From positions 65,426 to 129,425 of the forward strand of contig JAUYRN010000012.1 in NCBI GenBank assembly GCA_030696775.1: 64,000 bases of DNA. The letters run 5' to 3'. Numbering within the stretch: the stretch's first letter is position 1; each line of letters starts with the position of its first letter. Positions 43,014 to 62,853 of the stretch are shown here, piece by piece. Source of the DNA: Sulfuricurvum sp. (GTDB lineage Bacteria; Campylobacterota; Campylobacteria; Campylobacterales; Sulfurimonadaceae). Below the pieces are notes generated by a model that did no database searches, was not told where the DNA came from, and worked only from the letters and a program-made list of their open reading frames with translations. The position numbers were made by a program, and so were the translations under genes.

Positions 43014-43937
<924 letters not shown>

Positions 43938-43963: not shown

Positions 43964-43980
43964 TGCAAAGGATGTTCTAA
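43964..43980 (-). promoter_or_regulatory. Sigma54-like -24/-12 element upstream of nifH (TTAGAACATCCTTTGCA)
   Basis: AG-N10-GC spacing, with GC about 37 nt before the ATG. The same motif occurs at four other nif units. Confidence 0.65.
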
Positions 43981-45177: not shown

Positions 45178-45445
45178 TTTTCATTCTCTCTAGGATTTCG
45201 CCCAGTTTATCATTGCGTAATTGAATGAGTCGATCGATTTCATCGTAATCAAATTTCCCAGTATAAGCCATATCAAAGATTCTGAGAAGGGCTGCACGAC
45301 AGCAGCTCTTGTCACACTCTGTGACGAGTTTCTTGGCTTTTTTATAAGGTAGTGAGGTGTCTTGAAAGATCTTGATAGCATCGGCAACACTCTTGCCTCC
45401 GCATTCGCATATTTCGTGGACTAAAACCTCTTCTTTCGTAGGCAT
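45167..45445 (-). CDS. Small Cys-rich protein, possibly BFD-like [2Fe-2S]
   Basis: ICECGG ... CDKSCC in a nif context. Confidence 0.55.
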   Translation of the reverse strand: MPTKEEVLVHEICECGGKSVADAIKIFQDTSLPYKKAKKLVTECDKSCCRAALLRIFDMAYTGKFDYDEIDRLIQLRNDKLGEILERMKSGR

Positions 45446-45456
45446 GACAACATCCC

Positions 45457-45654
45457 TTAAAGAGAATGCTCTGCTTTATACGCATTTGCCTTTTCGACAG
45501 CAACGTAAAGCTTTTCAGCCAGTTCAGGCATTTTTACATGATTACTCCAAACCGTATCTTCAACAATGTCATGAATCTCAGAGGCAACTTCGATTGCCAA
45601 GCGTTTAAGTTTTGCCAACTCTTTTCTTTGTTCTTGTTCGGTCATTTCCGACAT
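45457..45654 (-). CDS. Rop-like / CCE_0567 family nif-associated protein
   Basis: Two-helix protein with an IHDIVED motif resembling the family LHDLxED. Confidence 0.65.
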   Translation of the reverse strand: MSEMTEQEQRKELAKLKRLAIEVASEIHDIVEDTVWSNHVKMPELAEKLYVAVEKANAYKAEHSL

Positions 45655-45747
45655 AATCAATCCTTTTTTTATTTAATTTTACACACTTAAACGAGCAAAG
45701 CCCGTTTAAGTGGCAAGGACAAGTTTGTCCTTTGCAATCCCCTAAAG

Positions 45748-45972
45748 TTAGGCTACACGTATCTCAATGTTTCGGGCTTGATCTTTTCCCAGTGCAATCA
45801 ATCTTTGACCGATTTGGACTTGGACACTGCTTTTAAACAAACCATAGCGTTTTACGCACACGGTAGCATTAGGGCACAGTCCCATATCACAAAGATGCTG
45901 CTTTAGATCATCACTCAAATCTATAGAAAGGACTTTGCATTTTTCATTCACACAACTTTCAAGCAGGTTCAT
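45748..45972 (-). CDS. feoA: FeoA family protein
   Basis: 74 aa with LCDMGL.P...V.V.R.G and IALGK..A..I.I. No feoB nearby. Confidence 0.85.
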   Translation of the reverse strand: MNLLESCVNEKCKVLSIDLSDDLKQHLCDMGLCPNATVCVKRYGLFKSSVQVQIGQRLIALGKDQARNIEIRVA

Positions 45973-46069
45973 GGAATAATCCTTTCAAAAATTCTGCCCC
46001 CAAAGGGGCAAGCTTTAGTGCCATAGCGGCAAGCGTAGGGGCAGGTGTTTTACTCCTGCCTCGTTCAAA

Positions 46070-46897
46070 TTAAAGTGAAAATGCGTAGATATTTTCAAAT
46101 TTGACAGCATGAGCTTCACCATACGACATGTGGATAAACGTCCCTTTTTGCTGAAAGTGGTATTTCTCGTACAATTCAACGGCTTTTGTATTTCCCATCG
46201 GAACATCGGCAAGTACTTTTTTAAGCCCTCTAAAATACAAAACTCCCTGCATCATCTTCTCTGCTTCATCTTCAAACCCCTCACGGCATTGCCATGGTCC
46301 GAGATAGACACCGCGTGCATTAATAACACTGGAGTGTTGGAATGAATTTGGAAGTGCAAATTTCAGTGAGCTGTTCCGTTCCATCTCATCGAGCATAAAT
46401 CCCATACGATTCTCACCAAATGTCTCAAAATCGATTTTACGAATCATCGCATCGAAATTTCCACCGTCAAGCTCTTTGGCCTGAGCATTCGTAAAACTAA
46501 AAGGGGGAACTTTTCCGACATTGAGAAAGCGCCCTACTTCCATAACCGCTTTAAAACCACTCTGCTCAAAAAAAGTCTTAAGCTGAGGATTAGCATGGAG
46601 GTAGAGAGAGGGATGTTCCTCTTTTAAAACACCAAAGAGGGTATTAAAAAGCCGTCGTCCAATCCCTTGTTTTTGATAGGTTGGTTTGACCATAAAATAT
46701 TTTATCATCGCTGAGGATTCAAACTCGATTGCCATGACTGCACCAACAAGCACTCCCTCATCGTAGGCACCATAACACAAATGAGGAGCATGCATCATCA
46801 TGAGTTTGACATGGTATCCATCCAGCAGCCAACCCGTCTCTTCGGCAATTTTAATCAAATCAGGAACATCAACGAACTTTATCCACCCTATATACAT
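46070..46897 (-). CDS. GNAT acetyltransferase (YitH-like two-domain)
   Basis: VKPTYQKQGIGRRLF and a second degenerate GNAT half; coupled to nifV. Confidence 0.8.
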   Translation of the reverse strand: MYIGWIKFVDVPDLIKIAEETGWLLDGYHVKLMMMHAPHLCYGAYDEGVLVGAVMAIEFESSAMIKYFMVKPTYQKQGIGRRLFNTLFGVLKEEHPSLYLHANPQLKTFFEQSGFKAVMEVGRFLNVGKVPPFSFTNAQAKELDGGNFDAMIRKIDFETFGENRMGFMLDEMERNSSLKFALPNSFQHSSVINARGVYLGPWQCREGFEDEAEKMMQGVLYFRGLKKVLADVPMGNTKAVELYEKYHFQQKGTFIHMSYGEAHAVKFENIYAFSL

Positions 46898-48003
46898 GCT
46901 GCATCCTGATAGAGAGATTTAAGTTCGAATACATCCAAAACGCGTTTACGTGAAGTAACAATCTCTCGGATTTTTGGAAGAAGCTCGCTTAATATGCTGT
47001 TATCTGCACTGATACCCATACGCTTTAAATGGTAGCGTATTGTTGCACTGCCAGAGTGTTTACCGATGGGATACGAACTTTCTAGTCCGACTTCTGAAGC
47101 TTGATAAGGCTCATACGCGCTAGAATCTTTCATCATACCGCTTGCATGAATGCCGCTCTCATGGGCGAAAATATGTTCACCCACGACAGGAGCATTGGAT
47201 GCAAGCGTCATATTCGCTGCACCCGCAACTGTACCTACTAAATTTCGAATAAGGAGTGGATCGATGGGACGTGCCTCACCATATAGATGTTTCAATGCCA
47301 TGAGAATCTGTTCAAATGAAGCATTTCCTGCCCTCTCACCTAATCCCATTACCGTAGTATTCATACTAATTGCCCCTGCATCAATTCCGCTAAGAGCATT
47401 TGCATTGGCGAGTCCAAAATCGTTATGAGTGTGCATTTCAATCGGGAGGAGATTTAAATTCGTCAACGATTTGACCGCTTTATACGTTTGTATAGGTGTC
47501 ATAATACCGATCGTATCGCAATAGCGGAAACGCTGTGCTCCACATTCACGGGAAAGCTCCATAACATCTTTAATAAACTCAAAACTGCCTCGTGAGCTGT
47601 CTTCACCGCCTATGCAGACAAACAATCCTTCGCGAGTGGCAGCAGTGACAACTCGTTCGAGTTCGTTTAATACTTTGATTTTACTTCCACCGAATTTTAT
47701 ATCGATCAAAAGATCCGAAATAGGAATGGATAAATCAACCGCTCCAATACCACACGAAAGGGATGCGTCAAGATCTTCCATTTTCATCCGATTCCACGTC
47801 ATCATTCGAGCGCGTAAGCCTAGAGATAAAAGTGCTTTTATATCCTCACGCTCTTTGACACCCATTGCCGCAATACCGATTTCGAGTTCATCCGCTCCGC
47901 ACGCATCCAATAATGTTGCGATACGGATTTTTTCCTCGGTATTGAATGCGACGTAAGCGGCTTGCTCGCCGTCACGCAATGTTGTGTCATTTATGAGTGC
48001 CAT
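46888..48003 (-). CDS. nifV: Homocitrate synthase
   Basis: INDTTLRDGEQ, HTHNDFG, GLGERAGN, HESGIH and GKHSG; downstream of nifB. The true start is MALIND. Confidence 0.92.
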   Translation of the reverse strand: MALINDTTLRDGEQAAYVAFNTEEKIRIATLLDACGADELEIGIAAMGVKEREDIKALLSLGLRARMMTWNRMKMEDLDASLSCGIGAVDLSIPISDLLIDIKFGGSKIKVLNELERVVTAATREGLFVCIGGEDSSRGSFEFIKDVMELSRECGAQRFRYCDTIGIMTPIQTYKAVKSLTNLNLLPIEMHTHNDFGLANANALSGIDAGAISMNTTVMGLGERAGNASFEQILMALKHLYGEARPIDPLLIRNLVGTVAGAANMTLASNAPVVGEHIFAHESGIHASGMMKDSSAYEPYQASEVGLESSYPIGKHSGSATIRYHLKRMGISADNSILSELLPKIREIVTSRKRVLDVFELKSLYQDAACI

Positions 48004-48017
48004 AATAGGTTCCTTCC

Positions 48018-48092
48018 CGTCATCCTCGGGCTTGACCCGGGGATCCATCTTCATTAATGCATAGCTGGATTCCCGCCTTCGCTGGAATGACG
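48018..48092. repeat. CGTC-tagged REP-like palindromic dyad
   Basis: CGTCATCCTCGGGCTTGACCCGGGGATCCA on plus and CGTCATTCCAGCGAAGGCGGGAATCCAG on minus. Each is self-complementary and they lie head-to-head in the nifB-nifV spacer. Confidence 0.75.
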
Positions 48093-48097
48093 ATGTA

Positions 48098-49513
48098 TTA
48101 GTTAACTTCCGCGTTTTCATCCACACCGAAATATTTACGTGACGCTTTGAGGACTGAAATCTCGATTGGCTCATAGGCATAGCTTTGATCCGCCACAATT
48201 CCGGCCGCTTTGAGATCATCTTGTGGACATCCGCCGATTTTAGCCGTCAAAACCATCTGTACATCTTTAAGTTTCTCTAAAATCGGAGCAAGCGGATTCG
48301 TCCCATCAGGACCTGCACAGTATTCTGCATCGACTTTACGGTGATGGATAAATCGAATCCCTTTGTCCCCCGCTTCATAAATCAAGAACTCTTTAACACT
48401 TCCAAAGTGCATGTTAATCATCCCCTCGCCCGCAGTCGTAACCGCAACGAGAATCGTCACACCGTTGGAACTGAGCTCTTCTTTTTCTTTTCGGACACGA
48501 TCATTTGCACGGTCGAGGAAGAATCGGAACTCTTCGATCTTAGCCTGAGCTTCTTGACGCGCTTCGAGGTCGTATTTAATTTGCAGTTCATCGAAACTCA
48601 ACCCTGCAAAGGTATCTTTCGTAAACTCTCCGCCACGGTCTTCACCGATAAGTCCTACGGCATCCGCACGACACTGACGGCAGTGCTGCATCAGTTTCAT
48701 ATCATGACCGCACGCTTCTTGCGCTGCCATTTGCTCTTGGTCAGTTGCACTAGGTACGCCATCAAGGGCAAATTTGGTTCCGAACTCAGGCTCTGAGAGG
48801 ATCGGCATAATGTTATGTAAAAATACCCCAATCTCTTTGAGTTTACGTGATACTTCCGGTAGATGCTGATCGTTAATACCTGGGATCAAAACTGAATTTG
48901 CTTTGATCAAAATCCCTTTTTCGACACATTTACGCATCCCCTCTAGCTGATTTGCCAAGAGTATTTTTGATGCCTCTTTTCCATAGATACGTTTATTGTC
49001 ATGAAAAATCCACGGATAAATCAAACTTCCGATCTCGCCCGTCTCATCAACGCTGTTGATCGTAACGGTAATGTGATCGATGTTGTATTCGACCATCTCA
49101 TCAACAAAGTTTGGTAATTCCAATCCGTTTGTAGAAAGACACAATTTTAAATCCGGTGCAAATTCGCGCACCATACCAAATGTTTCAAATGTCTTTTTAG
49201 GATTTGCCAACGCATCACCTGGCCCTGCAATCCCAAGTACGCTCATACGTTGCACTTCTCCGCCGACGAACATAACTTTCTTCGCCGCTTCCACAGGCGA
49301 GAGGCGTTCAGATGTTACACCCGGACGTGACTCATTCGAACAGTCGTATTTTCGATTACAGTAATTGCATTGGATATTACACGCAGGGGCAACAGCTACG
49401 TGAATACGCGCATAGTGGTGGTGAGCACCTTCTGAATAGCATGGATGATTGTGGATCTTTTCCTTAATATCATCGGGCATAAAAGCTTCGGTTCCAGTTG
49501 ATGAACAGCTCAT
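48098..49513 (-). CDS. nifB: FeMo-cofactor biosynthesis radical SAM protein with C-terminal NifX-like domain
   Basis: HPCY, CNIQCNYC, ESRPG, GIAGPGD, CRQCRADA and a C-terminal HFG. Confidence 0.97.
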   Translation of the reverse strand: MSCSSTGTEAFMPDDIKEKIHNHPCYSEGAHHHYARIHVAVAPACNIQCNYCNRKYDCSNESRPGVTSERLSPVEAAKKVMFVGGEVQRMSVLGIAGPGDALANPKKTFETFGMVREFAPDLKLCLSTNGLELPNFVDEMVEYNIDHITVTINSVDETGEIGSLIYPWIFHDNKRIYGKEASKILLANQLEGMRKCVEKGILIKANSVLIPGINDQHLPEVSRKLKEIGVFLHNIMPILSEPEFGTKFALDGVPSATDQEQMAAQEACGHDMKLMQHCRQCRADAVGLIGEDRGGEFTKDTFAGLSFDELQIKYDLEARQEAQAKIEEFRFFLDRANDRVRKEKEELSSNGVTILVAVTTAGEGMINMHFGSVKEFLIYEAGDKGIRFIHHRKVDAEYCAGPDGTNPLAPILEKLKDVQMVLTAKIGGCPQDDLKAAGIVADQSYAYEPIEISVLKASRKYFGVDENAEVN

Positions 49514-49587: not shown

Positions 49588-49604
49588 TGCAAATAGCGTT
49601 CTTA
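49588..49604 (-). promoter_or_regulatory. Sigma54-like element upstream of nifB (TAAGAACGCTATTTGCA)
   Basis: AG-N10-GC spacing, read directly. Confidence 0.6.
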
Positions 49605-49700: not shown

Positions 49701-49716
49701 AAGAACAAGAGTTGCA
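49701..49716 (+). promoter_or_regulatory. Sigma54-like element upstream of the NifX-like gene (AAGAACAAGAGTTGCA)
   Basis: AG-N10-GC, with GC about 30 nt before the ATG. Confidence 0.62.
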
Positions 49717-49744: not shown

Positions 49745-50188
49745 ATGATTGTTGCTATACCGATAGATGCATTCAAGCGTGTCTACCACTACAATCCATG
49801 TAGCGCAACGATGTTCGCACTGTATGAACTTACAGGAGAACGCAACGATATTCGCTATCGACATATAGACTCCAAACTTAACCCTTGGAAGAAATGTGAA
49901 GGTGAGATGGTGTGCGACCCAAAGATGAAAGAAAGCAGCTGTGACACAGATAAGAGCCGTGATCCTCACCACATCAGTGAGCACTATGCCCTTCTCGAAG
50001 TCATCGGCAAATGTGACTATCTTATCACAGGTCAATATTGTCTCAATACCTTTTATGCAATGCGCAATGTCGGAATCAAAATCCATAAGATTCCTCCCTT
50101 TATGAAAACGACCCACGAAGCGATGAACCATTTTATTATAGGAGTCGAAATTGCAGATAGTCTACAACACATCCACGCTGTATCTTGA
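49745..50188 (+). CDS. NifB/NifX-like cofactor-binding family protein with Cys-rich insert
   Basis: MIVAIP N-terminus, FALY strand, CDYLITG and GIKIH; divergent from nifB. Confidence 0.6.
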   Translation: MIVAIPIDAFKRVYHYNPCSATMFALYELTGERNDIRYRHIDSKLNPWKKCEGEMVCDPKMKESSCDTDKSRDPHHISEHYALLEVIGKCDYLITGQYCLNTFYAMRNVGIKIHKIPPFMKTTHEAMNHFIIGVEIADSLQHIHAVS

Positions 50189-50657
50189 AGATATGCCTCT
50201 CGATGTCGGTTATGCCTCTGAAAAAGTGAGCCTTAAAAACCACAAAGATGAGACATTTACCATCGGAGGACAAAACGGATTTACCCAGCTCATATTTTCG
50301 ACCCCTTTTATAAATGATGTGCTTCTAGCACAGTTGGAAGAGATCGATACCTTGTTAGGCCTTAATGCACTGCAAGGTATTACGAAAGCTCTTGTCGTTG
50401 CCAATGGCCAACATGAATTGCCTACACTCGAAGAGTGGTTAAGCGGATATGATCATGATGAGGCTTACGGGGATTATTACGGTGTTCGACTTTCTAATAA
50501 AGAACTTGCCAAATCGCTATTTATTATCTCCAAAGATGGAGCAATCTTCTACCACGAGATTCTCAGTGATTTAAATGCACCATTTAGTATTGACAAAGCA
50601 CTTGCAAAGATCGTCGCTGCCAATAGCTGTTACACAGGTAAAGGGTGTCATGGGTAA
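50151..50657 (+). CDS. Tpx (thiol peroxidase)-like protein without peroxidatic Cys
   Basis: Aligns with Tpx (VGY..V.L, QLIFSTP, YGV, LAKSLFII) but lacks the DTxVC motif. TTG start with a GGAG RBS. Confidence 0.65.
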   Translation: MQIVYNTSTLYLEDMPLDVGYASEKVSLKNHKDETFTIGGQNGFTQLIFSTPFINDVLLAQLEEIDTLLGLNALQGITKALVVANGQHELPTLEEWLSGYDHDEAYGDYYGVRLSNKELAKSLFIISKDGAIFYHEILSDLNAPFSIDKALAKIVAANSCYTGKGCHG

Positions 50658-50693
50658 GTTTTTTTGTGGTAAAATCAAGGCAAGCTATTTGAT

Positions 50694-50757
50694 CCCATTT
50701 TCCCTGAGCTCGTCGAAGGGTAAGAAGTTCATGGTTCGACTGGTTCATCACGAACGG
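50694..50757. repeat. Degenerate REP-like element (CCCTGAGCTCGTCGAAGGG ... GGTTCGACTGGTTCATCACGAACGG)
   Basis: Partly complementary halves (GTCGAA/TTCGAC) that resemble an intergenic repeat family I recall from other bacteria. Family assignment is unverified. Confidence 0.45.
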
Positions 50758-50773
50758 AAAAAAGGTAATTTGA

Positions 50774-53272
50774 ATGGCAATAATAATTCAACCGAATATG
50801 CGACTTGAAGACGTCGAATTTTACAAATATCTACAATCTATCACAAGCCCTTTTCTATCAAATATCGAATCTATAGTTCAAGAAAAAACTATTGTTTTAG
50901 CTAATGAAATTCCAAAAGTTTTTGATACCTATACAATACACGACATAAACCATTCCCTCAGAATTCTTCAACATTGCTACTGTTTAGTTCAGGATAAAAT
51001 AACAGAGATGAATGAACTAGACATCGTCATCCTTTTCTATTCTGCAATACTGCATGACATTGGTATGGCTGTAAGCACAGAAGAGTTAGAACAAATCAAA
51101 ACACAGGGATACAACTATAACGGACTAAAATTTTCTGCAATGCTCCATCAGCGAAATAATGATGAAAAAATTGCGATGCAAGATTTTATCCGAACAATTC
51201 ACGCAGACAGAGCCAATAATTATGTCTTGAATGAACAAAAGAGTAAATATTTACTTCCTTATCAGGAATTTGCAGATTTTCGAGCAGAAGTAGGTAAGGT
51301 TTGCGCATCACATGGTAAAGACTTCTTATGGATTCTAAAAAACCTCTCCAGTGAAACGCTTAAAGGAACCTATAAATTCAATTTACAATTTTGCTCATTT
51401 TTATTGAGATTAGGTGATCTTCTGGACTTTGATAGCAACAGAACACCACCTGTCTTGTATAAGATGATTGAACCTACTGGATATGGAAAAGCTGAATGGC
51501 AACAGCATTTTATGATCAAAAATTTCCAAAAAATCATAGAAAATGAGTCAAAACAAAAAACGATTACTATCATTGGTGAGTCTGATAATCCAAAAATTCA
51601 TAGAAAATTCTTGATGTATCTTAAATGGATTGAAAATGAGGTCGCATCCGTTATTAATGCATTGAAAAAAATGCCGTTATCCTATCAACTCAATTTAAAC
51701 CCTTTTTTGGAGGTCAATATTACGACTTCCAGCTACACCTTCTCCGACAAAAAACTATCAATAGATTATCAGGCCATCACCAAACTTTTGATGGGTGAAA
51801 AAATTTATGGTGACAAAAAACTCGCCCTTAGAGAAATGATTCAAAATTCAATAGATGCGTGTAAACTCAGAAAAGAATTTGAAGATTACAAAAAGCAATA
51901 TGGAGATGAAGAATTCACTGCTTCAATCAAAATAATCATCAATCGTGAAGCGGGCTATGTTGCTATAAAAGACAACGGTATGGGAATGACTATGGATATA
52001 GTCAACAACTATTTTTTAAATATAGGGAAATCCTACTATACCTCGGAATCATTTTTATTAGAAGAGTATAGTTATAAACCGATCGGAAATTTCGGTATCG
52101 GATTTTTAGCCTGTTTTATGCTATCTGATGAAATAAAAATCAGGACAAGGCATATTGATTCAGAGAATAAAATTTCTATTTCATTGGAAAAAGAGAGTGA
52201 ATATATCACACTCCATGAAGAACAAGATGTCCAGTTTGACGGAACAGAAATACTATTTAACTACAGTTCATTTATGAATGAATTTGACAATGATATTGAT
52301 AAATTAAACAAATTTTTAATTCCTCTATTTCTAATCGATGATTTTTCTATTAAAGTTGTTGATGTAGGCGAAAAACAAACTTATGAACTAAAAAATACTT
52401 TATCGCTAAATTCTCAAGACTTGAAACCTAATGAACATATTTTACCTCTTACAGAGTTTTTAAATGGGATTGATGGAAGTATAATTGTCAGATATTATGA
52501 TAGATACATTGATGATTTAACTGATATCACGGAAAAAGAAACTTATTATGTTTATAATAATTTGCGTTTAGAAAAAATAAACTCATCATATAATTTAAGT
52601 GAACTATATCATGATGGTGCATTTTATTTTATAGAGATTCCAATTATTACTTATCAGGATAGAGAGAATTATGATAAATATGCAGAAGCTTTAGATGATG
52701 ACTTAGATAATGTTATTGACAAACTTTCAGAAAATTCTGATTGGATTACTATTTTTTACGATCCAAAAGAAGTAAAAAATATTACCGAAGGCTTTATTGA
52801 CATTGAAATAGATAATATTATGAACAATATTTCATTTAAAGATTTACTCCCATTTGGTCAGGATCAAATATTACCTACAAAAGTATATTTACATCAAACA
52901 AAAGCTCATTTGCAAAAAAATAGATATTTACCTTATGGGAATCGAGAAACAAGATTTTATTACTTTTTTAATAAAGAAGTGAAAACCTATTTAAGAAATA
53001 TTTTAATAAGTGATTTTAAACTTCGTCCTGAGAATTTAGCAGATATATTTACAATTGAAGATTATAAAATCAATGTTATTAACAGAGATATTATTCCATC
53101 TATTTCAAGAAACAATTTTGATCAAAAAACAAATGACAAATTAACTTACGCTTTAACAAAAGCCATACATTTGTCTGCATTAAAATATATAAATTTAGAT
53201 GATACGAAGAAAGCTTTATTAAAAAGTTTTATAGACGAGTATTTTAGTGAAGTGACAAATTTAGAATCATAG
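50774..53272 (+). CDS. HD-domain + HSP90-like GHKL ATPase fusion (832 aa), probable conflict/defence protein
   Basis: YTIHDINH..RI, LHDIGM and LRLGDLLD (HD domain); LREMIQNSIDA, DNGMGM and GNFGIGF (HATPase N, G1 and G2 boxes); AT-rich variable C-terminus. Confidence 0.85.
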   Translation: MAIIIQPNMRLEDVEFYKYLQSITSPFLSNIESIVQEKTIVLANEIPKVFDTYTIHDINHSLRILQHCYCLVQDKITEMNELDIVILFYSAILHDIGMAVSTEELEQIKTQGYNYNGLKFSAMLHQRNNDEKIAMQDFIRTIHADRANNYVLNEQKSKYLLPYQEFADFRAEVGKVCASHGKDFLWILKNLSSETLKGTYKFNLQFCSFLLRLGDLLDFDSNRTPPVLYKMIEPTGYGKAEWQQHFMIKNFQKIIENESKQKTITIIGESDNPKIHRKFLMYLKWIENEVASVINALKKMPLSYQLNLNPFLEVNITTSSYTFSDKKLSIDYQAITKLLMGEKIYGDKKLALREMIQNSIDACKLRKEFEDYKKQYGDEEFTASIKIIINREAGYVAIKDNGMGMTMDIVNNYFLNIGKSYYTSESFLLEEYSYKPIGNFGIGFLACFMLSDEIKIRTRHIDSENKISISLEKESEYITLHEEQDVQFDGTEILFNYSSFMNEFDNDIDKLNKFLIPLFLIDDFSIKVVDVGEKQTYELKNTLSLNSQDLKPNEHILPLTEFLNGIDGSIIVRYYDRYIDDLTDITEKETYYVYNNLRLEKINSSYNLSELYHDGAFYFIEIPIITYQDRENYDKYAEALDDDLDNVIDKLSENSDWITIFYDPKEVKNITEGFIDIEIDNIMNNISFKDLLPFGQDQILPTKVYLHQTKAHLQKNRYLPYGNRETRFYYFFNKEVKTYLRNILISDFKLRPENLADIFTIEDYKINVINRDIIPSISRNNFDQKTNDKLTYALTKAIHLSALKYINLDDTKKALLKSFIDEYFSEVTNLES

Positions 53273-53373
53273 GGTTGGAGTAAATTCGAACCAATATTAA
53301 ACATTTTTGTCTCTTCTCACCCCATTCTCTCCAAAATCCTACAAAATAAGATAATTTTACTCCTATTTCCAAC

Positions 53374-53389
53374 AAGAACGCAAAATGCA
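53374..53389 (+). promoter_or_regulatory. Sigma54-like element upstream of SIR2-clpP-clpX (AAGAACGCAAAATGCA)
   Basis: AG-N10-GC, with GC about 34 nt before the ATG. Confidence 0.58.
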
Positions 53390-53421
53390 ATATTCCATTC
53401 AAAGTTCCAAAAGGGATCACG

Positions 53422-54252
53422 ATGGACACACAAATCGAAACAATAAAAAAAGAATTACGCAATCAAACCACCATTCCCTACTTCGGATTGGGTGTCTTTG
53501 AGGGGATCATGACAAAAGAGGGAGAAGCCGTTCCTCATGACAGTGATTCGCTGATTTTGGCGATGAATGGCGGGCGGGCTATGGCTCCACGCCTCATGTT
53601 TGAGTACTCACGTGCGGCGATGCATTTGGAACAGCGTCGCGGTGTCGAGTACATGACACAGCTTATGAATCATATCTATACCAAACCATTCGAGCCGACA
53701 CCATTGCACAAAGCGATCATTGATATGTCACCACGCTACATCGTTGATACCAATCGCGACACGAAGTTTCAAGAACTTTTAGCGTTTACTCCGCATTGTC
53801 TCATCATTGGTAAATCACGCATCATGGGTGATTTAAACCGCTATGAAACGTATGAATACGATGTTGAGAATCAGAAATATTTTCTCGTAGATGATGAGGT
53901 GCTAGAGAGTGCGGAAAAAATCCTCTTCAAACCGATGGGCTCACCGTTACCTAATCCAACCTTTGTCATCTCCGATGCCGATTACGTAGATTGGCTTACC
54001 GAAGCGATGGGAGGATTTGCCGTGCCAAAAGTACTAAAAACCTACCGTAAAGCAAAAAAATATCTCTTTTTAGGCACATCTTTCGGTCACGATACCGATC
54101 GGATGGTGGCTAACGAGCTTAGCTTTGATTTGGAGGGTGGATATGTCATCACCGATCAAGAGCTGGGGAAAAAAGAGAAAAAGTTTATCGAGAAACACAA
54201 TATTGAAGTGATTCCTATGTCACTTCAAGAATTTATCCAAGCATTCATTTAA
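53422..54252 (+). CDS. SIR2-like family protein (nif-associated type)
   Basis: IPYFGLGV, IVDTNRD, LFKPMGS, ISDADYV and YLFLG, the SIR2_2 pattern. Confidence 0.75.
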   Translation: MDTQIETIKKELRNQTTIPYFGLGVFEGIMTKEGEAVPHDSDSLILAMNGGRAMAPRLMFEYSRAAMHLEQRRGVEYMTQLMNHIYTKPFEPTPLHKAIIDMSPRYIVDTNRDTKFQELLAFTPHCLIIGKSRIMGDLNRYETYEYDVENQKYFLVDDEVLESAEKILFKPMGSPLPNPTFVISDADYVDWLTEAMGGFAVPKVLKTYRKAKKYLFLGTSFGHDTDRMVANELSFDLEGGYVITDQELGKKEKKFIEKHNIEVIPMSLQEFIQAFI

Positions 54253-54263
54253 AGGAGATAATC

Positions 54264-54857
54264 ATGCCTTACTTACCTACAGTTAAAGATGTTTCGCCTC
54301 GCGGAGAGCGTTATTTCGATTTGTTTTCCAAACTTTTAGGCGATCGTGTCATCGTTATCACCGAAGCAATTGATGATCACATGATGGGGATTATCGTTTC
54401 TCAACTGCTGTATCTGGAAGCGATGGATTCCGAAGAACCGATTCATGTTTACATCAGTTCACCGGGTGGTTCAGTGATGAGTGGATTAGCCATATTAGAT
54501 ACTATGAACTTAATCAATGCCCCCGTGCATACCTATGCCATGGGGATGGTAGCATCGATGGCGGCGGTGTTATTTACCTGTGGGGAAAAAGGGCATCGTT
54601 ATATGCTCCCTAATGCAGAAGTGATGATTCATCAGCCATTGGGCGGCTATTCGGGTCAAGCAAGCGACATTGAGATTCATACGAAACATATCCTCAATCT
54701 CAAACGCCGTTTGTATGTGATCCTCGCTGAGGCGACGGGGAAAAGTGCCAAAGTGATCGAAAAAGAATCCGACCGCGACAACTACATGGAAGCCAAAGAA
54801 GCAATCGAGTTTGGCTTAGCGGATACGATTTTGACTAAATTCAGTGCGAAGGATTGA
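54264..54857 (+). CDS. clpP: ATP-dependent Clp protease proteolytic subunit
   Basis: YISSPGG, ASMA (Ser), MIHQP (His) and RDNYM (Asp). Confidence 0.95.
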   Translation: MPYLPTVKDVSPRGERYFDLFSKLLGDRVIVITEAIDDHMMGIIVSQLLYLEAMDSEEPIHVYISSPGGSVMSGLAILDTMNLINAPVHTYAMGMVASMAAVLFTCGEKGHRYMLPNAEVMIHQPLGGYSGQASDIEIHTKHILNLKRRLYVILAEATGKSAKVIEKESDRDNYMEAKEAIEFGLADTILTKFSAKD

Positions 54858-54860
54858 GTG

Positions 54861-56075
54861 ATGAATACTGAAAAAAACTGCTCATTTTGCGGACGACCAC
54901 AGCGTGAAGTGAAAAAAATGTTCTCCTCGGAGACAACCCATATTTGTAACGAGTGTATCACAACTTGTTCAGCAATACTTCAAAAGGAAGTACGCTACGA
55001 GCAACGCTCCGAAATGCAGCAACAGCTCCCTATTCCCGAAAAGATCGTGGAGTTTTTAGACAAATACATCATTGGTCAAGTGGATGCGAAAAAAGTCCTT
55101 GCCGTTGCATTGTACAACCACTACAAACGCATTGAAAACCCGATTTACAATAATGTTGAGTTGGAAAAAAGCAATATTCTCCTCGTAGGGCCTACGGGAA
55201 GCGGTAAAACATTACTTGCCAAATCGCTTTCAAAAATCATGCAAGTTCCGTTTGCCGTTGCTGATGCAACAGCACTCACCGAAGCTGGATACGTAGGGGA
55301 AGACGTCGAAAGCATCCTCTCTCGTCTCCTTGCCGCAGCCAACTATGACATCGAGCTCGCACAACGAGGAATCATCTACATCGACGAGATCGATAAAATC
55401 GCCCGCAAGTCAGAATCTTCTACTATGGGACGTGATGTTTCCGGTGAAGGGGTACAACAAGGGTTACTCAAAATTCTTGAAGGGGCAGAAGTGTACGTCC
55501 CAGTCAAAGGGAGCCGTAAAAACTCCACCACCGAAACGGTATTATTCAATACTACTCACGTCCTCTTCGTCTGTGGCGGTGCGTTTGTTGGTCTTGTACC
55601 CGATACCCATACTAAAAAGTCAAATAAAGTCGGATTTAGTAAAAGTACGGCAGAAACCGTCGTTAAACCTAAAAAGATCGATGCCAAAGCGCTCGTCCAT
55701 TACGGGATCATCCCTGAGTTTATCGGGCGTATCCCCGTCGTTGCACAGCTGACCGAGCTTACCAAAGAGCAAATGGTGCAAATCCTCCAAGAACCGGACA
55801 ATGCTCTTATCAAACAATTTCAAGCGCTGTTTGATATGGACGGTATCGAGCTAAACTTCGAAGCCAAAGCCCTCGATGCCGTTGCCCAAAAAGCAATCGA
55901 CCGTGGTGTAGGCGCACGCGGATTACGCAGTATTATCGAAGAAGCGATGCTGCCGTTGCAATTTAGCTGCCCATCGAAAAAGAATCTACAAAGCCTCACC
56001 ATCACTGAAGCGGTGATCGAAGACCCAACCAATGAACCGATTTACGTATACAAAGAAGAACAAGCCCAAGGGTAA
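54861..56075 (+). CDS. clpX: ATP-dependent Clp protease ATP-binding subunit
   Basis: CSFC..CNEC Zn finger, [26 protein letters not shown], a VGF loop and GARGLR. Confidence 0.96.
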
Positions 56076-56225: not shown

Positions 56226-59200
56226 ATGACAGTAATAACAGAGAATGCTCAGACAGACCAATTCTCTGAAACGAACAATACAATTGATCCTTACGATACT
56301 GATACCCAATTAAATTTTCCCATTGTAGGCATAGGCGCTTCCGCTGGAGGTTTAGCGGCTTTTGAGGCGTTCTTTTCAGGTTTGCCCGCTAATGTTGATT
56401 CTGAAATGGCGTATGTGCTCGTTCAGCATCTTTCTCCCGAGCATAAAAGTATACTGACAGAGCTCATCAGCCACTATACCAGTATGAAAGTTTTCGAAGT
56501 TGAAGATGGTATGGCGGTACAGCCCAATTGTGTTTATGTCATTCCACCCGGTCAGGATATGGCTATTTTAAATGGAATTCTGCAACTTTTTGAGCCTACT
56601 GAACTGCATGGTCATCGTTTACCCATTAATTATTTTTTTCGTTCTTTGGCACAAGATCAGGCACAAAAAGCTATCGCTATCATCTTGACAGGTACTGGCA
56701 GTGATGGAACATTAGGAATACAAGCCATTAAGGCAGAAGGTGGAATGGTGATGGCTCAAAGCCTCAATTCTGCTGAGTACGATGGAATGCCTAGCAGTGC
56801 CATCGCAACAGGACTTGTGGATTACGAACTTTCGCCCTCTGAAATGCCCCTCAAACTGATAGACTATGTGACCCATGCGTTTGGAACTCCGCCACGCACT
56901 CCCACCTCTCCAACATTGCAGTATGAAAATTCGCTCAAGAAAATTTTTATCCTTCTTCGTGCCCAAACCGGTCATGATTTTTCCCTCTATAAACCCAGTA
57001 CCATTTATCGTCGTATTGAACGACGCATGGTGGTTCACCAAATTGATGAGATAGGCAAATACGTTAAATATTTACAAAATACACCGACCGAGATAGTAGC
57101 ATTGTTTCGTGACTTGTTAATTGGTGTCACCAATTTTTTCCGTGACCCAGAAGCATTTAAGCTACTTGAAGAATATATCATTCCCAAACTTTTTATCGCT
57201 AAACCCGAAGGAAGTGTCATTCGAATTTGGTCGACGGGATGTTCTACGGGCGAAGAAGCGTACTCCATAGCAATACTTTTGTCAGAGTATATGGAAGCCA
57301 TGAAATTGCACCATGTGGTTCAGATCTTTGCTACGGACATCGATGCTCAAGCAATAGCAAAAGCACGTACTGGGCTATTTTCATCCAGTATATCAACTGA
57401 AGTTACAGCAGAACGACTGGGACGTTTTTTTACAGCTGAGCCCGATGGCAGTATGTATCGAATCCATAAAAATATTCGTGATATGCTGATTTTTTCAGAA
57501 CATAATATTATTAAAGATCCTCCCTTCTCTAGGCTGGACCTCATTTCCTGCCGCAATCTTCTCATTTATATGGGGTCAGAGTTGCAAAAAAAACTTTTTC
57601 CATTATTTCATTATGCACTTAATTCCAATGGTATCCTTTTTTTAGGCACCTCCGAATGCATCGGCGATTTTACCGACCTATTTTCGGTAATGGATCGAAA
57701 AGCAAAAATATACCAACGAAAAGAACAGCTCTATGGAGTAAAACGGACAAATATAAAACAGCTCCTTCCCTCGATAAGCACCATTCGCACGGTCATTTCT
57801 CAGCCAGCAGGAAAGCTCTCTGAGCGGAAACTACCCCTTCGCGAGCTAACCGAGCAGGCACTCTTACAACAAATTGCACCCTCTGGAGCACTTGTTAATA
57901 TAAAAGGTGACATTCTCTACCTTTATGGGCGTATGGGAATGTATCTGGAATTACCTGTGGGTGAAACCAGCAGTATTAATATTCTAAAAATGGCGCGTGA
58001 AGGTTTACAGCGTGATTTAACGATTGCTTTGCATAAAGCCGTCTCCTCAAAAGAGATTATTCGCTACTCTAGTTTGAGCATCAATGTTAATGGCCATTTC
58101 AATACCATCAATCTCACCATCCGACCAGTAGTGATTTCTGTCGATCCTACGGTAACACCTGAGTCTCCTTTGTACTTGATTATTCTTGAAGAAGTACCGC
58201 TGACAGAGGTACAAAGAGCTCAAAAAAAGGCTCTCCAAACATTATCACAAGAAGATGGATCAAATCAAGAAGAGCATTTTAGTATTGAGCTATTGAAAAA
58301 AGAGTTGTGGGCGAAAGAAGAATATCTTCAAATTGCCAATGAAGAGATGGAAAGCTCCAATGAAAAACTGAAATCCTCAAACGAAGAGATGCAATCCATA
58401 AACGAAGAGTTACAATCGACCAATGAAGAGCTTGAAACGTCGAAAGAAGAGTTACAATCCGCGAATGAAGAGTTGGCAACCGTTAATATCGAACTGCAAA
58501 CCAAAGTCTCTGATTTATCCCTTGCCAATAATGATATGAACAATTTACTCGCAGGAACGGGTGTGGGTACGGTTTTTGTGGATCACCAACTGCGTATTCT
58601 CCGTTTCACTCCCGAAGCTAAAATGATAATCAACCTTATATCCGGTGATGAGGGAAGACCTGTTTCTCATATTGTTTCCAACTTAATCGGCTATATTAAC
58701 CTAGTGGATGATGTGCAGGCGGTGCTGGATACCTTGATGCCAAAAGAGTTGGATGTCCAAACAGTGATTGGTAAATGGTACACGATGCGTATCCTCCCCT
58801 ACCGAACGATTGACAACGTCATTGAGGGTGCTGTCATTACTTTTATAGACAATACCGCCCGTAAAGATGCCGAAGCCGCACTCTATAAAGCAGGAACGCT
58901 GCAAAGAGCTATTTTTAACAGTACTAATTTTTCCAGTATTGCTACCGATAAAAAGGGCGTTATTCAAATTTTTAACGTTGGTGCAGAGAAAATGTTAGGC
59001 TATGCAGCCACGGAGGTGATGAACAAAATCACACCGGCTGATATTTCTGATCCGACAGAAATCATCCAGAGGGCTGAAAGTTTAAGTTTGGAATTCAACA
59101 CACCCATAGCCCCAGGCTTTGAAGCGTTGGTGTTCAAAGCTTCCCGTGAGATCGAGGATATATATGAGCTTACGTATGTTCGTAAAGATGGCAGTCGCTT

Positions 59201-59699
59201 TCCGGCAGTCGTTTCTGTGACGGCTTTACGTGACGATAAAGAGAAGATTATCGGCTACTTACTCATCGGTACAGACAATACGGCTCGCAAAGAAGCAGCA
59301 GAAGCACAGCTCAAAGTTAATGAGTTGCTTCGTTTAGCCGTAGTTGTACGTGATGCGCATGATGCCATTACCGTTCAAAGCTTGGATGGTACGATTCTTG
59401 CCTGGAATCCCGGAGCCGTGAGAATGTATGGTTGGAGTGAAGAGGAAGCACTAAAAATGAATGTACGCGACCGCATACCAAAAGCGCTCCAAGAAGAAGC
59501 GCTAGTGCGAGTACATCAGTTGAGCCAAGCTGAAGTCTTGGAGCCATTATTTACACAACGAATGAGAAAAGACGCTCAAACAGTAGAAGTCTGGCTGACG
59601 GCTACTGCTTTAGTAAATGAAAGCGGTAATATCTATGCAGTAGCCACCACAGAACGGATGATTGAATCAAAAATCAATATGAAGAGAGTAACCTCATGA
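56226..59699 (+). CDS. CheB methylesterase-CheR methyltransferase-PAS fusion (1157 aa)
   Basis: CheB S/H/D (GASAGG, VQHL, TGSDG); CheR VTNFFRD and GCSTGEE; a long coiled coil; three C-terminal PAS/PAC modules; no kinase domain. Confidence 0.93.
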   Translation: MTVITENAQTDQFSETNNTIDPYDTDTQLNFPIVGIGASAGGLAAFEAFFSGLPANVDSEMAYVLVQHLSPEHKSILTELISHYTSMKVFEVEDGMAVQPNCVYVIPPGQDMAILNGILQLFEPTELHGHRLPINYFFRSLAQDQAQKAIAIILTGTGSDGTLGIQAIKAEGGMVMAQSLNSAEYDGMPSSAIATGLVDYELSPSEMPLKLIDYVTHAFGTPPRTPTSPTLQYENSLKKIFILLRAQTGHDFSLYKPSTIYRRIERRMVVHQIDEIGKYVKYLQNTPTEIVALFRDLLIGVTNFFRDPEAFKLLEEYIIPKLFIAKPEGSVIRIWSTGCSTGEEAYSIAILLSEYMEAMKLHHVVQIFATDIDAQAIAKARTGLFSSSISTEVTAERLGRFFTAEPDGSMYRIHKNIRDMLIFSEHNIIKDPPFSRLDLISCRNLLIYMGSELQKKLFPLFHYALNSNGILFLGTSECIGDFTDLFSVMDRKAKIYQRKEQLYGVKRTNIKQLLPSISTIRTVISQPAGKLSERKLPLRELTEQALLQQIAPSGALVNIKGDILYLYGRMGMYLELPVGETSSINILKMAREGLQRDLTIALHKAVSSKEIIRYSSLSINVNGHFNTINLTIRPVVISVDPTVTPESPLYLIILEEVPLTEVQRAQKKALQTLSQEDGSNQEEHFSIELLKKELWAKEEYLQIANEEMESSNEKLKSSNEEMQSINEELQSTNEELETSKEELQSANEELATVNIELQTKVSDLSLANNDMNNLLAGTGVGTVFVDHQLRILRFTPEAKMIINLISGDEGRPVSHIVSNLIGYINLVDDVQAVLDTLMPKELDVQTVIGKWYTMRILPYRTIDNVIEGAVITFIDNTARKDAEAALYKAGTLQRAIFNSTNFSSIATDKKGVIQIFNVGAEKMLGYAATEVMNKITPADISDPTEIIQRAESLSLEFNTPIAPGFEALVFKASREIEDIYELTYVRKDGSRFPAVVSVTALRDDKEKIIGYLLIGTDNTARKEAAEAQLKVNELLRLAVVVRDAHDAITVQSLDGTILAWNPGAVRMYGWSEEEALKMNVRDRIPKALQEEALVRVHQLSQAEVLEPLFTQRMRKDAQTVEVWLTATALVNESGNIYAVATTERMIESKINMKRVTS

Positions 59700-61603
59700 T
59701 TGTCGATGAAAATTTTGATGGTGTAGAAATTCTTCCAAAAAATTTACGTTTGCAAGCCGAAAGAATCGCTTGCGAAAACATGGATGAGTCACGAGAAGAC
59801 TTAGAAAAAATGTTGCCCGAAGAAATCGGACGTATACTGCATGAATTACGTGTTCATCAAATCGAATTGGAAATGCAAAACGAGGAATTACGTCAAACGC
59901 AAATAGAGCTTGATGCCCAACGTGAGCGTTATTTTGATCTCTATGATCTGGCTCCGGTAGGCTATTGTACTCTCTCCGAGGCGGGATTAATATTAGAAGC
60001 TAACTTAACCGCTGCTGTACTGCTTGGGGTTAGCCGAAATAATCTAGTTGGGCGGCTCATGTCTAAATTTGTCCACAAAGAAGATCAAAACAACTACTAT
60101 CTGTACCGTAAAAAATTCTTTAAATCGGATGAAAAATTCTCTTTTGAATTACGTTTGCTTCGTGAAAATAATCCACCCTTTTGGGCGCATCTAGTAACGA
60201 TTGCTGCAAAAAATAGTGATAATATTTCCGTCGTTCGGCTAGTAATGAGCGATATTACCGAAAAAAAGCTATACGAAAATGAGTTAAACCGAATTGCCCA
60301 GTATGATGCACTGACCAATCTTCCCAATCGTGTACTGCTATCCGATCGCCTCAGTCAAGGGATGGCTCAGTCCCAACGTCATGGACTCCCTTTGGGCGTT
60401 GTTTATCTCGACTTAGATGGATTTAAAGAAGTCAATGATACTCATGGTCATGAAGTAGGCGATCATGTCCTCATTACCCTCTCCAATCAAATGAAACAAA
60501 CACTTCGAGAGGGGGATACCATTGCTCGAATAGGAGGAGATGAGTTCGTTATACTTTTGCTTGATTTGAATACTATCGAAGATGCTATTCCTATGATTAT
60601 CCGTCTTTTAGAGGCAACCTCCAAGCCATTAAATGTCGATGATCTATTATTGCAGATCACTGCAAGTCTAGGGGTAACTTTTTACCCGCAAGCTCAAAAA
60701 ATAGATACAGATTTACTCTTACGTCAAGCAGATCAAGCAATGTATCAAGCCAAATTAGCCGGCAGAAATCGCTATCATGTTTTTGATACACAGCAAGACA
60801 CACTTCTTCGAGAAAGATATGAATTTATAGAAAATATGCATAAAGCAATGCAATTATCTGAATTTCTCCTCTATTATCAGCCAAAAGTCAATATGAAAAC
60901 AGGAGTTGTTATTGGAGTAGAGGCGCTGATTCGATGGCAACATCCCAAAAATGGTCTCTTACCACCAGCTCTATTTTTACCTATGATTGAAGATCATCCA
61001 CTCTCTATTGAACTAGGAGAGTGGGTCATCAATGCGGCCTTAACCCAAATGGAACGTTGGCATCACGAGGGAGTCGATGTTCACATAAGCGTTAATGTTA
61101 GTGCTCGACAGCTTCAAGAAGATAATTTTGTCAACCGTTTACAGGAGATTTTAGCGTTACATCCGGACATTAATCCTGCTTATTTAGAGCTTGAAGTGTT
61201 AGAAACCAGTAAGCTAGAAGACATGACCCGAATCTCTAAAATTATTCAATCGTGCCGAGAGTTCGAAGTATTATTTTCGCTTGATGATTTTGGTACCGGT
61301 TATTCTTCTCTCACGTATCTCCAGCAGTTACCCATCGCCACGATAAAAATTGATCAAAGCTTTATTCGCGATATGTTTAATAATCCCAATGATATTGCAA
61401 TCTTATCAGGGATTATCAGCCTTGCTCATGCATTTCATTTGAATATAATCGCTGAGGGGGTAGAAACCATAGCGCACGGAGAACTGTTATTACAAATGGG
61501 ATGTGAATGTGCACAAGGCTACGCCATCGCTCGCCCAATGCCAGCACATGAGTTTCCTGGCTGGTTAGCTACTTGGTGTTCATACTCAGAGTGGATCAAA
61601 TAG
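59696..61603 (+). CDS. PAS-GGDEF-EAL protein
   Basis: HQIELEMQNEEL coil, PAS, intact GGDEF and EAL. ATGA overlap with the CheB/CheR gene. Confidence 0.93.
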   Translation: MIVDENFDGVEILPKNLRLQAERIACENMDESREDLEKMLPEEIGRILHELRVHQIELEMQNEELRQTQIELDAQRERYFDLYDLAPVGYCTLSEAGLILEANLTAAVLLGVSRNNLVGRLMSKFVHKEDQNNYYLYRKKFFKSDEKFSFELRLLRENNPPFWAHLVTIAAKNSDNISVVRLVMSDITEKKLYENELNRIAQYDALTNLPNRVLLSDRLSQGMAQSQRHGLPLGVVYLDLDGFKEVNDTHGHEVGDHVLITLSNQMKQTLREGDTIARIGGDEFVILLLDLNTIEDAIPMIIRLLEATSKPLNVDDLLLQITASLGVTFYPQAQKIDTDLLLRQADQAMYQAKLAGRNRYHVFDTQQDTLLRERYEFIENMHKAMQLSEFLLYYQPKVNMKTGVVIGVEALIRWQHPKNGLLPPALFLPMIEDHPLSIELGEWVINAALTQMERWHHEGVDVHISVNVSARQLQEDNFVNRLQEILALHPDINPAYLELEVLETSKLEDMTRISKIIQSCREFEVLFSLDDFGTGYSSLTYLQQLPIATIKIDQSFIRDMFNNPNDIAILSGIISLAHAFHLNIIAEGVETIAHGELLLQMGCECAQGYAIARPMPAHEFPGWLATWCSYSEWIK

Positions 61604-61659: not shown

Positions 61660-62853
<1,194 letters not shown>

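Follow-up and report, generated by a model that had tools for sequence, protein, structure and literature searches.

The 64,000-nucleotide (nt) window of Sulfuricurvum DNA analysed here carries, at 53422-56075 on the plus strand, three co-oriented genes that encode a SIR2-like protein, a ClpP and a ClpX, about 10 kb from nifH in a region rich in nitrogen-fixation (nif) genes (Table 1). The genes are tightly packed, with 11 nt between the SIR2-like gene and clpP and 0-3 nt between clpP and clpX, and the G+C content of the trio region is about 45%, compared with 32-36% for the gene directly upstream. An earlier note on this DNA had described the trio as a close-packed set of genes behind a nif-type motif, with a complete catalytic triad in ClpP, a zinc finger, Walker motifs and a VGF loop in ClpX, and a SIR2-like protein whose catalytic histidine is lost; each of these features is borne out by the analysis that follows. 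We conclude that SIR2-clpP-clpX probably forms one transcription unit under a promoter of the type found at nifH and nifB.

A database search with the SIR2-like protein returned 2656 relatives at E <=0.001, the best 120 of which are all at least 78% identical to it and are labelled Sulfuricurvum, Sulfurimonas or Campylobacterales. One genome per GTDB species was also scanned, giving 184 genomes with a match, and the best 80 of these were analysed; apart from a few submitter labels they are Sulfurimonadaceae metagenome-assembled genomes (MAGs). Motif counts refer to 80 SIR2-like, 73 ClpP and 71 ClpX orthologues, and neighbourhoods were compared in a tblastn synteny table of 86 related loci, of which 80 are genome loci. 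The SIR2-like orthologues are 73-99% identical to the window protein, a conservation about equal to that of ClpX, and the trio as a whole appears to be under strong purifying selection with its motifs intact.

The order of the trio is fixed, as clpX lies 3' of SIR2 wherever the locus is long enough to show it (at least 70 loci) and clpP is present in all but two. nifB is found within 10 kb and on the opposite strand in 60 of the 80 loci, and nifS is usually downstream, so that the suggested synteny of SIR2, clpP and clpX proves to be both conserved and nif-linked across the Sulfurimonadaceae. The recurring layout is nifH...GNAT-nifV-nifB, divergent from o147-o168-(variable insert)-SIR2-clpP-clpX-(variable insert)-nifS, where o147 and o168 are two small conserved genes. 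Complete genomes with the trio include those of Sulfuricurvum kujiense DSM 16994 and of Sulfurimonas sp. HSL3-2 and HSL-1716, the last two encoding P0073 and P0084. Three MAGs have two SIR2-clpP-clpX contigs each (L035 and L037, L015 and L016, L059 and L084); the gene layout of L035 and L037 looks identical. The doubled contigs of the three MAGs could reflect either mixed strains in the bins or true duplications.

The ClpX of the trio scores well above both equivalog cutoffs for the family (NF003745, 547.9 against a cutoff of 359; TIGR00382, 508.5 against 370.75) and carries the zinc-binding domain PF06689 (zf-C4_ClpX, 53.7 bits) with C8/C11/C30/C33, the CSFC...ICNEC pattern of which is kept in 69-70 of the 71 orthologues. 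Walker A (residues 111-118, GPTGSGKT), GYVG (144-147) and Walker B (175-180, ID(E)(I/V)DK) are present in 71/71, the sensor-2 motif GARGLR (352-357) in 70/71, and the VGF ClpP-docking loop (258-260) in nearly all, one orthologue having VGL. The RKH loop, which in ClpX helps to choose substrates such as ssrA-tagged proteins, reads GGRKHP(N/Q)QEF in both the housekeeping ClpX of Campylobacterota and E. coli ClpX. In the nif-linked ClpX it is altered to RKN-STTET, with SRKNST in 71/71 orthologues. Because this loop is concerned with substrate selection, an altered substrate range is expected, and we infer that the range of the nif-linked ClpX would be shifted away from ssrA-type tags.

Comparison with other ClpX proteins sets the nif-linked form apart. 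Housekeeping ClpX sequences were recovered from seven Campylobacterota genera (Aliarcobacter, Nitratiruptor, Hydrogenimonas, Caminibacter, Nautilia, Nitratifractor and Nitrosophilus); these are 62-77% identical between families, the nif-linked ClpX is 44-50% identical to them, and it falls outside their clade. Its identity to E. coli ClpX is about 51%, and comparison with the PDB gave 433 bits against the E. coli protein versus 326 against that of H. pylori. A 50%-identity representative library, in which ClpX clusters merge phyla, had no ClpX more than about 54% identical to the nif-linked one except for a fragment from the same family; its entry P0181 led to the named Campylobacterota housekeeping ClpX. 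A further profile search for housekeeping ClpX matched Nitratifractor, Nitrosophilus and Nitratiruptor, and no Sulfurimonadaceae. The same library contains a protein of 1238 amino acids (aa; P0121) in which three ClpX-like AAA+ modules stand in tandem, each sharing 35-39% identity with the nif-linked ClpX, and in which no zinc finger was seen.

The gene order around the housekeeping clpX of Campylobacterota is fabZ-lpxA-clpX-mreB-mreC, without an adjacent clpP, in keeping with the earlier statement that the housekeeping clpX and clpP lie apart in Helicobacter/Campylobacter. When metagenomes were scanned for the housekeeping-specific peptide IPELIGRLH, 112 loci were found, and clpP adjoins clpX in two of them, both non-Campylobacterota-like. 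The ClpX of the largest cluster of these loci (G+C 33-47%) is 78% identical to that of Nitratifractor, 57% to that of E. coli and 45-50% to the nif-linked form.

Both kinds of clpX locus were found in one MAG. L017 is a locus from the Sulfuricurvum kujiense MAG UBA12443, and of the words sampled from its SIR2-clpP-clpX stretch 99% occur in run X4, a 2.5-Mb single-organism data set. One contig of X4, of 3772 nt (depth 52.5), matches L017 without a difference across DEAD helicase-SIR2-clpP-clpX. A second contig of X4, of 6121 nt (depth 61.4), has six pieces collinear with fabZ, the housekeeping clpX, mreB and carB of locus L153, the spacing of the fabZ and mreB pieces being about 3.09 kb versus 3.12 kb when the contig and L153 are compared. 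The 3772-nt contig matches L153 only at the stretch coding for GYVG, and the flanks there translate as the nif-linked ClpX; with L123 as the reference for the S. kujiense MAG only very short pieces were obtained. Since the nif-linked clpX lies outside the housekeeping clade, and since both loci occur at similar depth in the S. kujiense MAG, it is an additional copy, the two clpX loci being present in one binned genome.

The second protein matches PF00574 (233 bits) and exceeds the cutoff of the subfamily model NF001368 (259.6 against 249), but stays below that of the clpP equivalog TIGR00493 (240.4 against 308.6), and it is best described as a ClpP, but a divergent one. The triad residues occur in the contexts VAS98MAA, MIH123QP and SDRD172N in all 73 orthologues. 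In two loci (L062 and L070) clpP is cleanly absent and SIR2 is followed directly by clpX, with the VGF loop retained in both. The nearest relatives of these two (L049/L053 and L067) keep clpP, and the two losses are therefore independent. The retention of SIR2-clpX and of the VGF loop where clpP has gone points to SIR2-ClpX as the core of the module, with ClpP needed from elsewhere, and suggests that a second clpP is present in the same genome. The earlier proposal of a second, complete ClpXP thus stands for clpX, with its divergent clade and the two loci in S. kujiense, and is plausible for clpP.

The SIR2-like protein has PF13289 (SIR2_2) as its sole Pfam match, with 29.2 bits against a cutoff of 24.5 and over aa 153-264 only; the same family is matched by 18/18 aligned orthologues. 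The correspondence of its motifs with those of SIR2 proteins was read by eye, without a printed hidden Markov model or structural alignment. KPMG(S) stands in place of KLHGS in 80/80 orthologues, with Met172 at the position of the catalytic His, and the Asn of the TTNYD-type motif is kept as DTNRD, again in 80/80. The glycine-rich loop GAGxS is represented by FGLG(V/I)F, of which FGLG is mostly kept, an assignment made by inspection, as were those of two further motifs of the SIR2_2 skeleton, SDADY (80/80) and FLGTSF...DTDRM. With the His turned into an invariant Met but the Asn and some of the Gly loop retained, the protein is more easily seen as a ligand-binding pseudoenzyme than as an NADase or deacylase. 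AlphaFold2 models were poor, with a mean predicted local distance difference test score (pLDDT) of 48.3 from 18 sequences and 49.0 from 121, all of the input sequences being at least 78% identical to the query, and a PDB profile search with the protein found no solved relative. A role as an adaptor or sensor for ClpX is put forward tentatively, as a possibility of somewhat less than even weight.

Five copies of the motif AGAAC-N5-WTGCA are present in the window, where 0.37 are expected, and 0 of 100 shuffles of the window reached five. Each copy stands 30-50 nt in front of a gene or operon (nifH, nifB, o147, the SIR2-like gene, and an operon for aldo-keto reductase and citrate synthase), and the nif-type motif before the trio is thus a real feature held in common with nifH and nifB. 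In the related loci (A/G)GAAC-N5-WTGC(A/T) precedes nifB in 55/60 cases and nifH in 21/25, at a fixed distance. It stands at -47 of the SIR2-like start in the 31 of the 80 loci where a gap follows o168, and otherwise upstream of o147 (40/68, at about -45) or o168 (17/70), so that at least one motif precedes SIR2, o147 or o168 in 65/80. It was found upstream of clpP in 0/75 related loci, of clpX in 0/72 and of nifS in only 1/57. The extended consensus is c(T/A)AGAAC-R-N4-WTGCA, with an invariant TGCA at -12, and it resembles a sigma-54 -24/-12 promoter in which A replaces the first G; from this resemblance a dependence on sigma-54 may be inferred. Scans of 49.4-56.4 kb for sigma-70 promoters and terminators did no better than shuffles. 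The NifA-type pattern TGT-N10-ACA was absent upstream of the SIR2-like gene and present once between nifB and o147; the pattern arises by chance too often to be informative. The operon at 13399-17302 on the minus strand that also follows the motif encodes an aldo-keto reductase, a citrate synthase, a 143-aa open reading frame (ORF) and a pyridoxal phosphate-dependent enzyme; it may be a member of this regulon and perhaps provides 2-oxoglutarate or homocitrate precursors.

Four RNA-library runs from wastewater contain 21-34% of the words sampled from the trio. Over 39-58 kb, the contig depths in three of these runs are 400-950 for nifHDK, 42-210 for SIR2-clpP-clpX and 10-50 for neighbouring non-nif genes. 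By this uncontrolled contig-depth evidence, the trio is transcribed in communities that express nitrogenase strongly. Contigs of run X25 join 50413 to 53422, so that o168 leads straight into SIR2, as in the form that lacks the 832-aa insertion described below. Three runs also have a depth spike of about 1800-2650 at the nifB-nifV junction (47876-48509, especially 48003-48095), where contigs show odd joints, one skipping 91 nt and another going back 76 nt; the spike may come from a repeat or from a small or processed RNA in high abundance.

The nif genes of the window comprise nifK, nifD and nifH at 39.4-43.9 kb and nifV and nifB at 46.9-49.5 kb, all on the minus strand. Opposite nifB, o147 has no Pfam or NCBIfam match, and o168 has faint redoxin/peroxiredoxin-like matches only, with no Pfam or NCBIfam family assigned. 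In L002 and L004 a 171-aa orthologue of o168 ends at the start of the SIR2-like gene. The products of o147 and o168 diverge much faster than the SIR2-like protein (34-99% versus 73-99% identity). None of the 86 related loci has the 832-aa HD-CE/HSP90-like gene that interrupts the operon between o168 and SIR2, and contigs with exactly the same SIR2-like protein are without it, the slot being filled by a small PAS protein or by nothing. The gene is of conflict-system type and, because it is found in no other related locus, represents a strain-specific insertion outside the conserved module. The insertion of CheB-CheR-PAS and GGDEF/EAL genes between clpX and nifS is common only to L007 and L009, and is likewise variable and outside the module. 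The clpX-nifS slot is an insertion hot spot in many loci, and nifS follows clpX directly in L001 and in 21 of the 80 genome loci.

Table 1. Coordinates of the SIR2-clpP-clpX trio, its neighbours and the promoter-like motifs within the window
Feature	Position	Strand	Remarks
SIR2-like gene (SIR2_2 family)	53422..54252	+	276 aa; Met172 for catalytic His; Asn111 (DTNRD) kept; Gly-rich loop FGLGVF
clpP paralogue	54264..54857	+	197 aa; triad Ser98-His123-Asp172 intact
clpX paralogue	54858..56075	+	405 aa from GTG; 404 aa from ATG at 54861, as called in other assemblies
Motif AGAACGCAAAATGCA	53375..53389	+	47 nt before SIR2-like start; predicted own promoter of SIR2-clpP-clpX
Motif AGAACAAGAGTTGCA	49702..49716	+	29 nt before o147 start; likely promoter of o147-o168-(SIR2-clpP-clpX)
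AGAAC-N5-WTGCA motif	49588..49602	-	upstream of nifB; predicted divergent partner promoter
AGAAC-N5-WTGCA motif	43964..43978	-	upstream of nifH
AGAAC-N5-WTGCA motif	17365-17379	-	precedes operon 13399-17302 (-)
nifH	43014-43928	-	about 10 kb from trio operon
nifB	48098-49513	-	divergent from o147 operon
o147	49745..50188	+	147 aa; conserved; heads operon opposite nifB; in 68/80 loci
o168	50151..50657	+	168 aa; conserved; abuts SIR2-like gene in many strains
HD-CE + HSP90/HATPase_c_3 gene	50774..53272	+	832 aa; HD-CE 168 bits; G+C 32-36%
CheB-CheR-PAS fusion and PAS/GGDEF/EAL protein	56226..61603	+	1157 aa and 635 aa; between clpX and nifS
NifS-family cysteine desulfurase	61669..62853	+	TIGR03403 607 bits; usual gene downstream of clpX

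The interval between nifH and nifV (44180-46897) holds an ORF with a CZB domain and two GNAT acetyltransferases, one of 153 aa and one a tandem GNAT of 275 aa; GNAT genes are conserved beside nifV in most loci, and contig depth in the GNAT region (45974-46607) is about 500. According to the gene calls of L002, which has the same SIR2-like protein, small Rop-like and FeoA-like ORFs also lie between nifH and nifV. A 119-aa ORF between nifH and nifD (42552-42911, minus strand) has no family match and is covered by RNA-library contigs at a depth like that of nifHDK. In L210 (= L045), a Sulfuricurvum MAG locus, DUF1989 proteins stand beside the trio (1-9582 and 12768-15509), and DarT-Macro (DarTG-like) and RelB-YafQ pairs follow.

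A ClpX associated with nif genes has been described before. In Azotobacter vinelandii, clpX2 stands at the end of the iscAnif-nifUSV-cysE1nif-nifWZM-clpX2 operon (PMC9866876), and, judging from the title of a 2011 study by Martinez-Noel et al. to which both PMC9866876 and PMC3916325 refer, ClpX2 regulates the levels of NifB and NifEN under nitrogen-fixing conditions. In Azoarcus, clpX and clpP are up about 2-fold under nitrogen fixation in a NifA-dependent manner (PMC3916325). The Campylobacterota module resembles that of A. vinelandii in having a second clpX in or near nif genes, including nifS, beside a housekeeping ClpX, and differs from it in bringing its own clpP and an obligatory SIR2-like partner. 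A. vinelandii ClpX2 is not known to have a zinc finger, whereas the nif-linked ClpX of Campylobacterota keeps the N-terminal zinc finger and has RKN for RKH. The two are likened by gene context, and an independent origin seems likely. A literature search did not find SIR2, ClpX, ClpP and nif combined in this sense, nor ClpX linked with these taxa, and all three proteins are absent from the supplementary tables of published work on diazotrophic Campylobacterota. A nif-dedicated ClpX is therefore already known; what is new is its occurrence in Campylobacterota, with a clpP of its own, a rebuilt RKH loop and an invariant partner of predicted sirtuin fold.

Canonical ClpXP and its adaptors (SspB, RssB, CpdR/RcdA/PopA) offer a second comparison. 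The nif-linked proteins have the same C4 zinc-finger AAA+ unfoldase, GYVG loop, IGF-type docking loop and Ser-His-Asp ClpP, and a small co-encoded partner could deliver or gate substrates through the ClpX N-domain, as such adaptors do. Unlike the canonical system, the nif-linked form does not conserve the RKH loop, with its reading of ssrA-like tags, and its partner is fixed directly before clpP-clpX; to our knowledge a sirtuin fold occurs in no known ClpX adaptor. The housekeeping clpX locus of Campylobacterota likewise encodes a protein of the same family and domain architecture, but one in which RKHPNQEF and IPELIGRLH take the place of the RKNSTTET and IPEFIGRIP of the nif-linked ClpX, whose gene has clpP and SIR2 as its neighbours.

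The SIR2-like protein itself can be set beside the anti-phage SIR2_2 NADases (ThsA of Thoeris, DSR1/2, SIR2-HerA and SIR2-Ago), with which it shares the PF13289 match and, by inspection, the skeleton G-rich loop...TNxD...K-x-H-G-S...DY...G-x-S-x-x-D, and from which it differs in its invariant Met for His, its chromosomal nif context and its very high conservation. A sensor or effector partner of the kind seen in defence is lacking, and PADLOC gave no system match. It can also be set beside the control of nitrogen fixation by DraT/DraG ADP-ribosylation and by GNAT/CobB acetylation, since a predicted NAD-binding fold and GNATs are both encoded in the nif cluster, a combination that suggests a link between protein modification and the regulation of nitrogenase. 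No DraT/DraG homologue was identified in the 64-kb window and, unlike those enzymes, a SIR2-like protein without the catalytic His could at most read marks, not write or erase them.

We regard it as highly probable that the trio is an accessory, lineage-specific ClpXP of the Sulfurimonadaceae within a nif or nitrogen-limitation regulon. The best explanation as a whole, held with rather less assurance but still favoured, is that this accessory module acts in the turnover of Nif proteins with the SIR2-like protein as its adaptor or regulator. A sigma-54-like (A/G)GAAC-N5-WTGCA promoter, as at nifH and nifB, would drive SIR2-clpP-clpX, often expressed as part of o147-o168-SIR2-clpP-clpX-nifS. ClpX would be a working AAA+ unfoldase that docks on ClpP via its VGF loop, and RKN in place of RKH would have moved substrate choice off ssrA-type tags. 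The partner of predicted sirtuin fold, lacking the catalytic His, would most likely serve as a non-enzymatic adaptor or regulator of the nif-linked ClpX, possibly responsive to NAD+, ADP-ribose or acyl-lysine. By analogy with A. vinelandii ClpX2, Nif proteins are the presumed substrates, and the module would set the levels of the Nif maturation proteins (NifB, NifEN, NifS/Fe-S scaffolds); alternatively, it may clear damaged nitrogenase components.

Several observations weigh against this explanation. The link to nif is not universal, with the trio away from nifB (not within 10 kb) in at least 7 of the 80 loci; in L045/L210 its neighbours are urea carboxylase, allophanate hydrolase and an ABC transporter, nif genes being absent within 10 kb, and in L036/L046 it comes after rpe-trpF-RNase T. 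The -24 element mostly reads AG where the canonical one has GG, GGAAC occurring in some orthologous sites, a sigma-54 activator gene was not found in the 64-kb window, and the presence of the motif before the aldo-keto reductase/citrate synthase operon means that the regulon may exceed nif. Induction under nitrogen limitation draws its support from the motif and crude metatranscriptome contig depths only; contig depth is a poor measure of expression, and the fourth run (X26) is flat at about 30 and looks DNA-like. The two-copy evidence for clpX is at the level of a MAG, the housekeeping match consisting of six short pieces of about 80-87% identity, and a second clpP in a trio-bearing genome is suggested only by the clpP losses. 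The adaptor role is without direct support, with pLDDT at 48-49 and no PDB relative by sequence.

Because at least seven of the 80 trios lie away from nifB, one of them beside urea carboxylase and allophanate hydrolase, the trio may belong to a nitrogen-limitation regulon in general and not to nif alone. Such a wider role is an alternative to be taken seriously. In its strongest form this reading makes the module a general nitrogen-starvation protease, switched on with the whole regulon to remodel the proteome or recycle amino acids, with Nif proteins not privileged among its substrates. The surroundings of the trio in L045/L210 would suit such a role, as would the shared motif before the aldo-keto reductase/citrate synthase operon and the retention of the motif at -41 in L036 and L046, which have no nif neighbours. 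The trio is nevertheless divergent from nifB-nifV in 60 of the 80 loci with nifS as its usual downstream gene, and a dedicated partner together with an altered RKH loop argues for a narrow choice of substrates, so that we consider a general starvation protease unlikely.

A different division of labour would make the SIR2-like protein an enzyme or independent regulator in its own right, for instance a non-canonical, NAD+-using ADP-ribosyltransferase or deacylase acting on Nif proteins in the manner of DraT or CobB, and ClpXP merely a co-expressed neighbour. Compatible with this are the Asn (DTNRD, 80/80) and the portion of the Gly-rich loop that are retained, the presence of two conserved GNAT acetyltransferases in the cluster, and a degree of conservation to be expected of an active site or of an exact binding site. 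The His of KLHGS is needed for catalysis in sirtuins and SIR2-type NADases, however, and is Met in 80/80 orthologues; SIR2 stays with ClpX where clpP has been lost, which suggests a functional SIR2-ClpX pair, and a separate promoter motif between SIR2 and clpP-clpX was not found. This division of labour is accordingly judged improbable.

More speculative is a refinement of the adaptor reading, in which the dead sirtuin would act as a 'reader' that recognizes an acyl-lysine or ADP-ribosyl mark on Nif proteins and passes them to the dedicated ClpX. The mark would be written by the two GNATs beside nifV, or would depend on NAD+/ADP-ribose levels, and the RKH loop of ClpX would have been rebuilt to receive the marked proteins delivered by the sirtuin. 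We give this version only a slight chance of being correct; if true, it would be a bacterial modification-dependent degron system that couples redox/NAD and nitrogen status to nitrogenase assembly.

That clpP and clpX of the trio are simply the housekeeping copies, next to nif by chance, is very improbable. ClpX does pass the equivalog cutoffs with its catalytic motifs all intact, and the adjoining nifS matches the epsilon-type NifS model, which according to its description is the general Fe-S cysteine desulfurase of the phylum. Yet the identity of the nif-linked ClpX to Campylobacterota housekeeping ClpX is far below that seen among the families of the latter, a housekeeping-context clpX contig is present in the same MAG, the trio lies behind a nif-type motif without sigma-70-like enrichment, and ClpP is under the clpP equivalog cutoff and lost in two species. 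Anti-phage defence by a SIR2 effector and a protease, as might be imagined from the prominence of SIR2_2 in Thoeris, DSR and SIR2-HerA, from the conflict-system-type HD-CE/HSP90-like gene directly upstream in the window and from the DarT-Macro and RelB-YafQ pairs adjoining the trio in L210, is scarcely credible when PADLOC gives the SIR2-like protein one marginal match (PDC-M30A, E 0.002), ClpP none and ClpX generic AAA+ ones, when the catalytic His is lost, when orthologues 73-99% identical hold a fixed position across the whole family, unlike defence islands, and when the HD-CE gene occurs in no other locus.

The favoured reading, an accessory ClpXP module that acts on Nif proteins with a SIR2-like adaptor or regulator, bears on how nitrogen fixation is managed in these bacteria. 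Nitrogenase assembly is costly and oxygen-sensitive, and chemolithoautotrophic Campylobacterota are important dark diazotrophs of groundwater, sediments and wastewater. The only case known to us of a dedicated ClpX that tunes the levels of cofactor-maturation proteins is Azotobacter ClpX2; the module described here would be a second and apparently independent solution, more complete than that of Azotobacter in having its own ClpP, a rebuilt ClpX loop and a predicted sirtuin-fold pseudoenzyme. An invariant pseudoenzyme of this fold would be a new class of ClpX partner and a candidate ligand-gated adaptor. The module offers testable hypotheses on the control of Nif protein levels outside Proteobacteria, and it may help in the transfer of nif clusters to new hosts, where the stability of NifB and NifEN is limiting.

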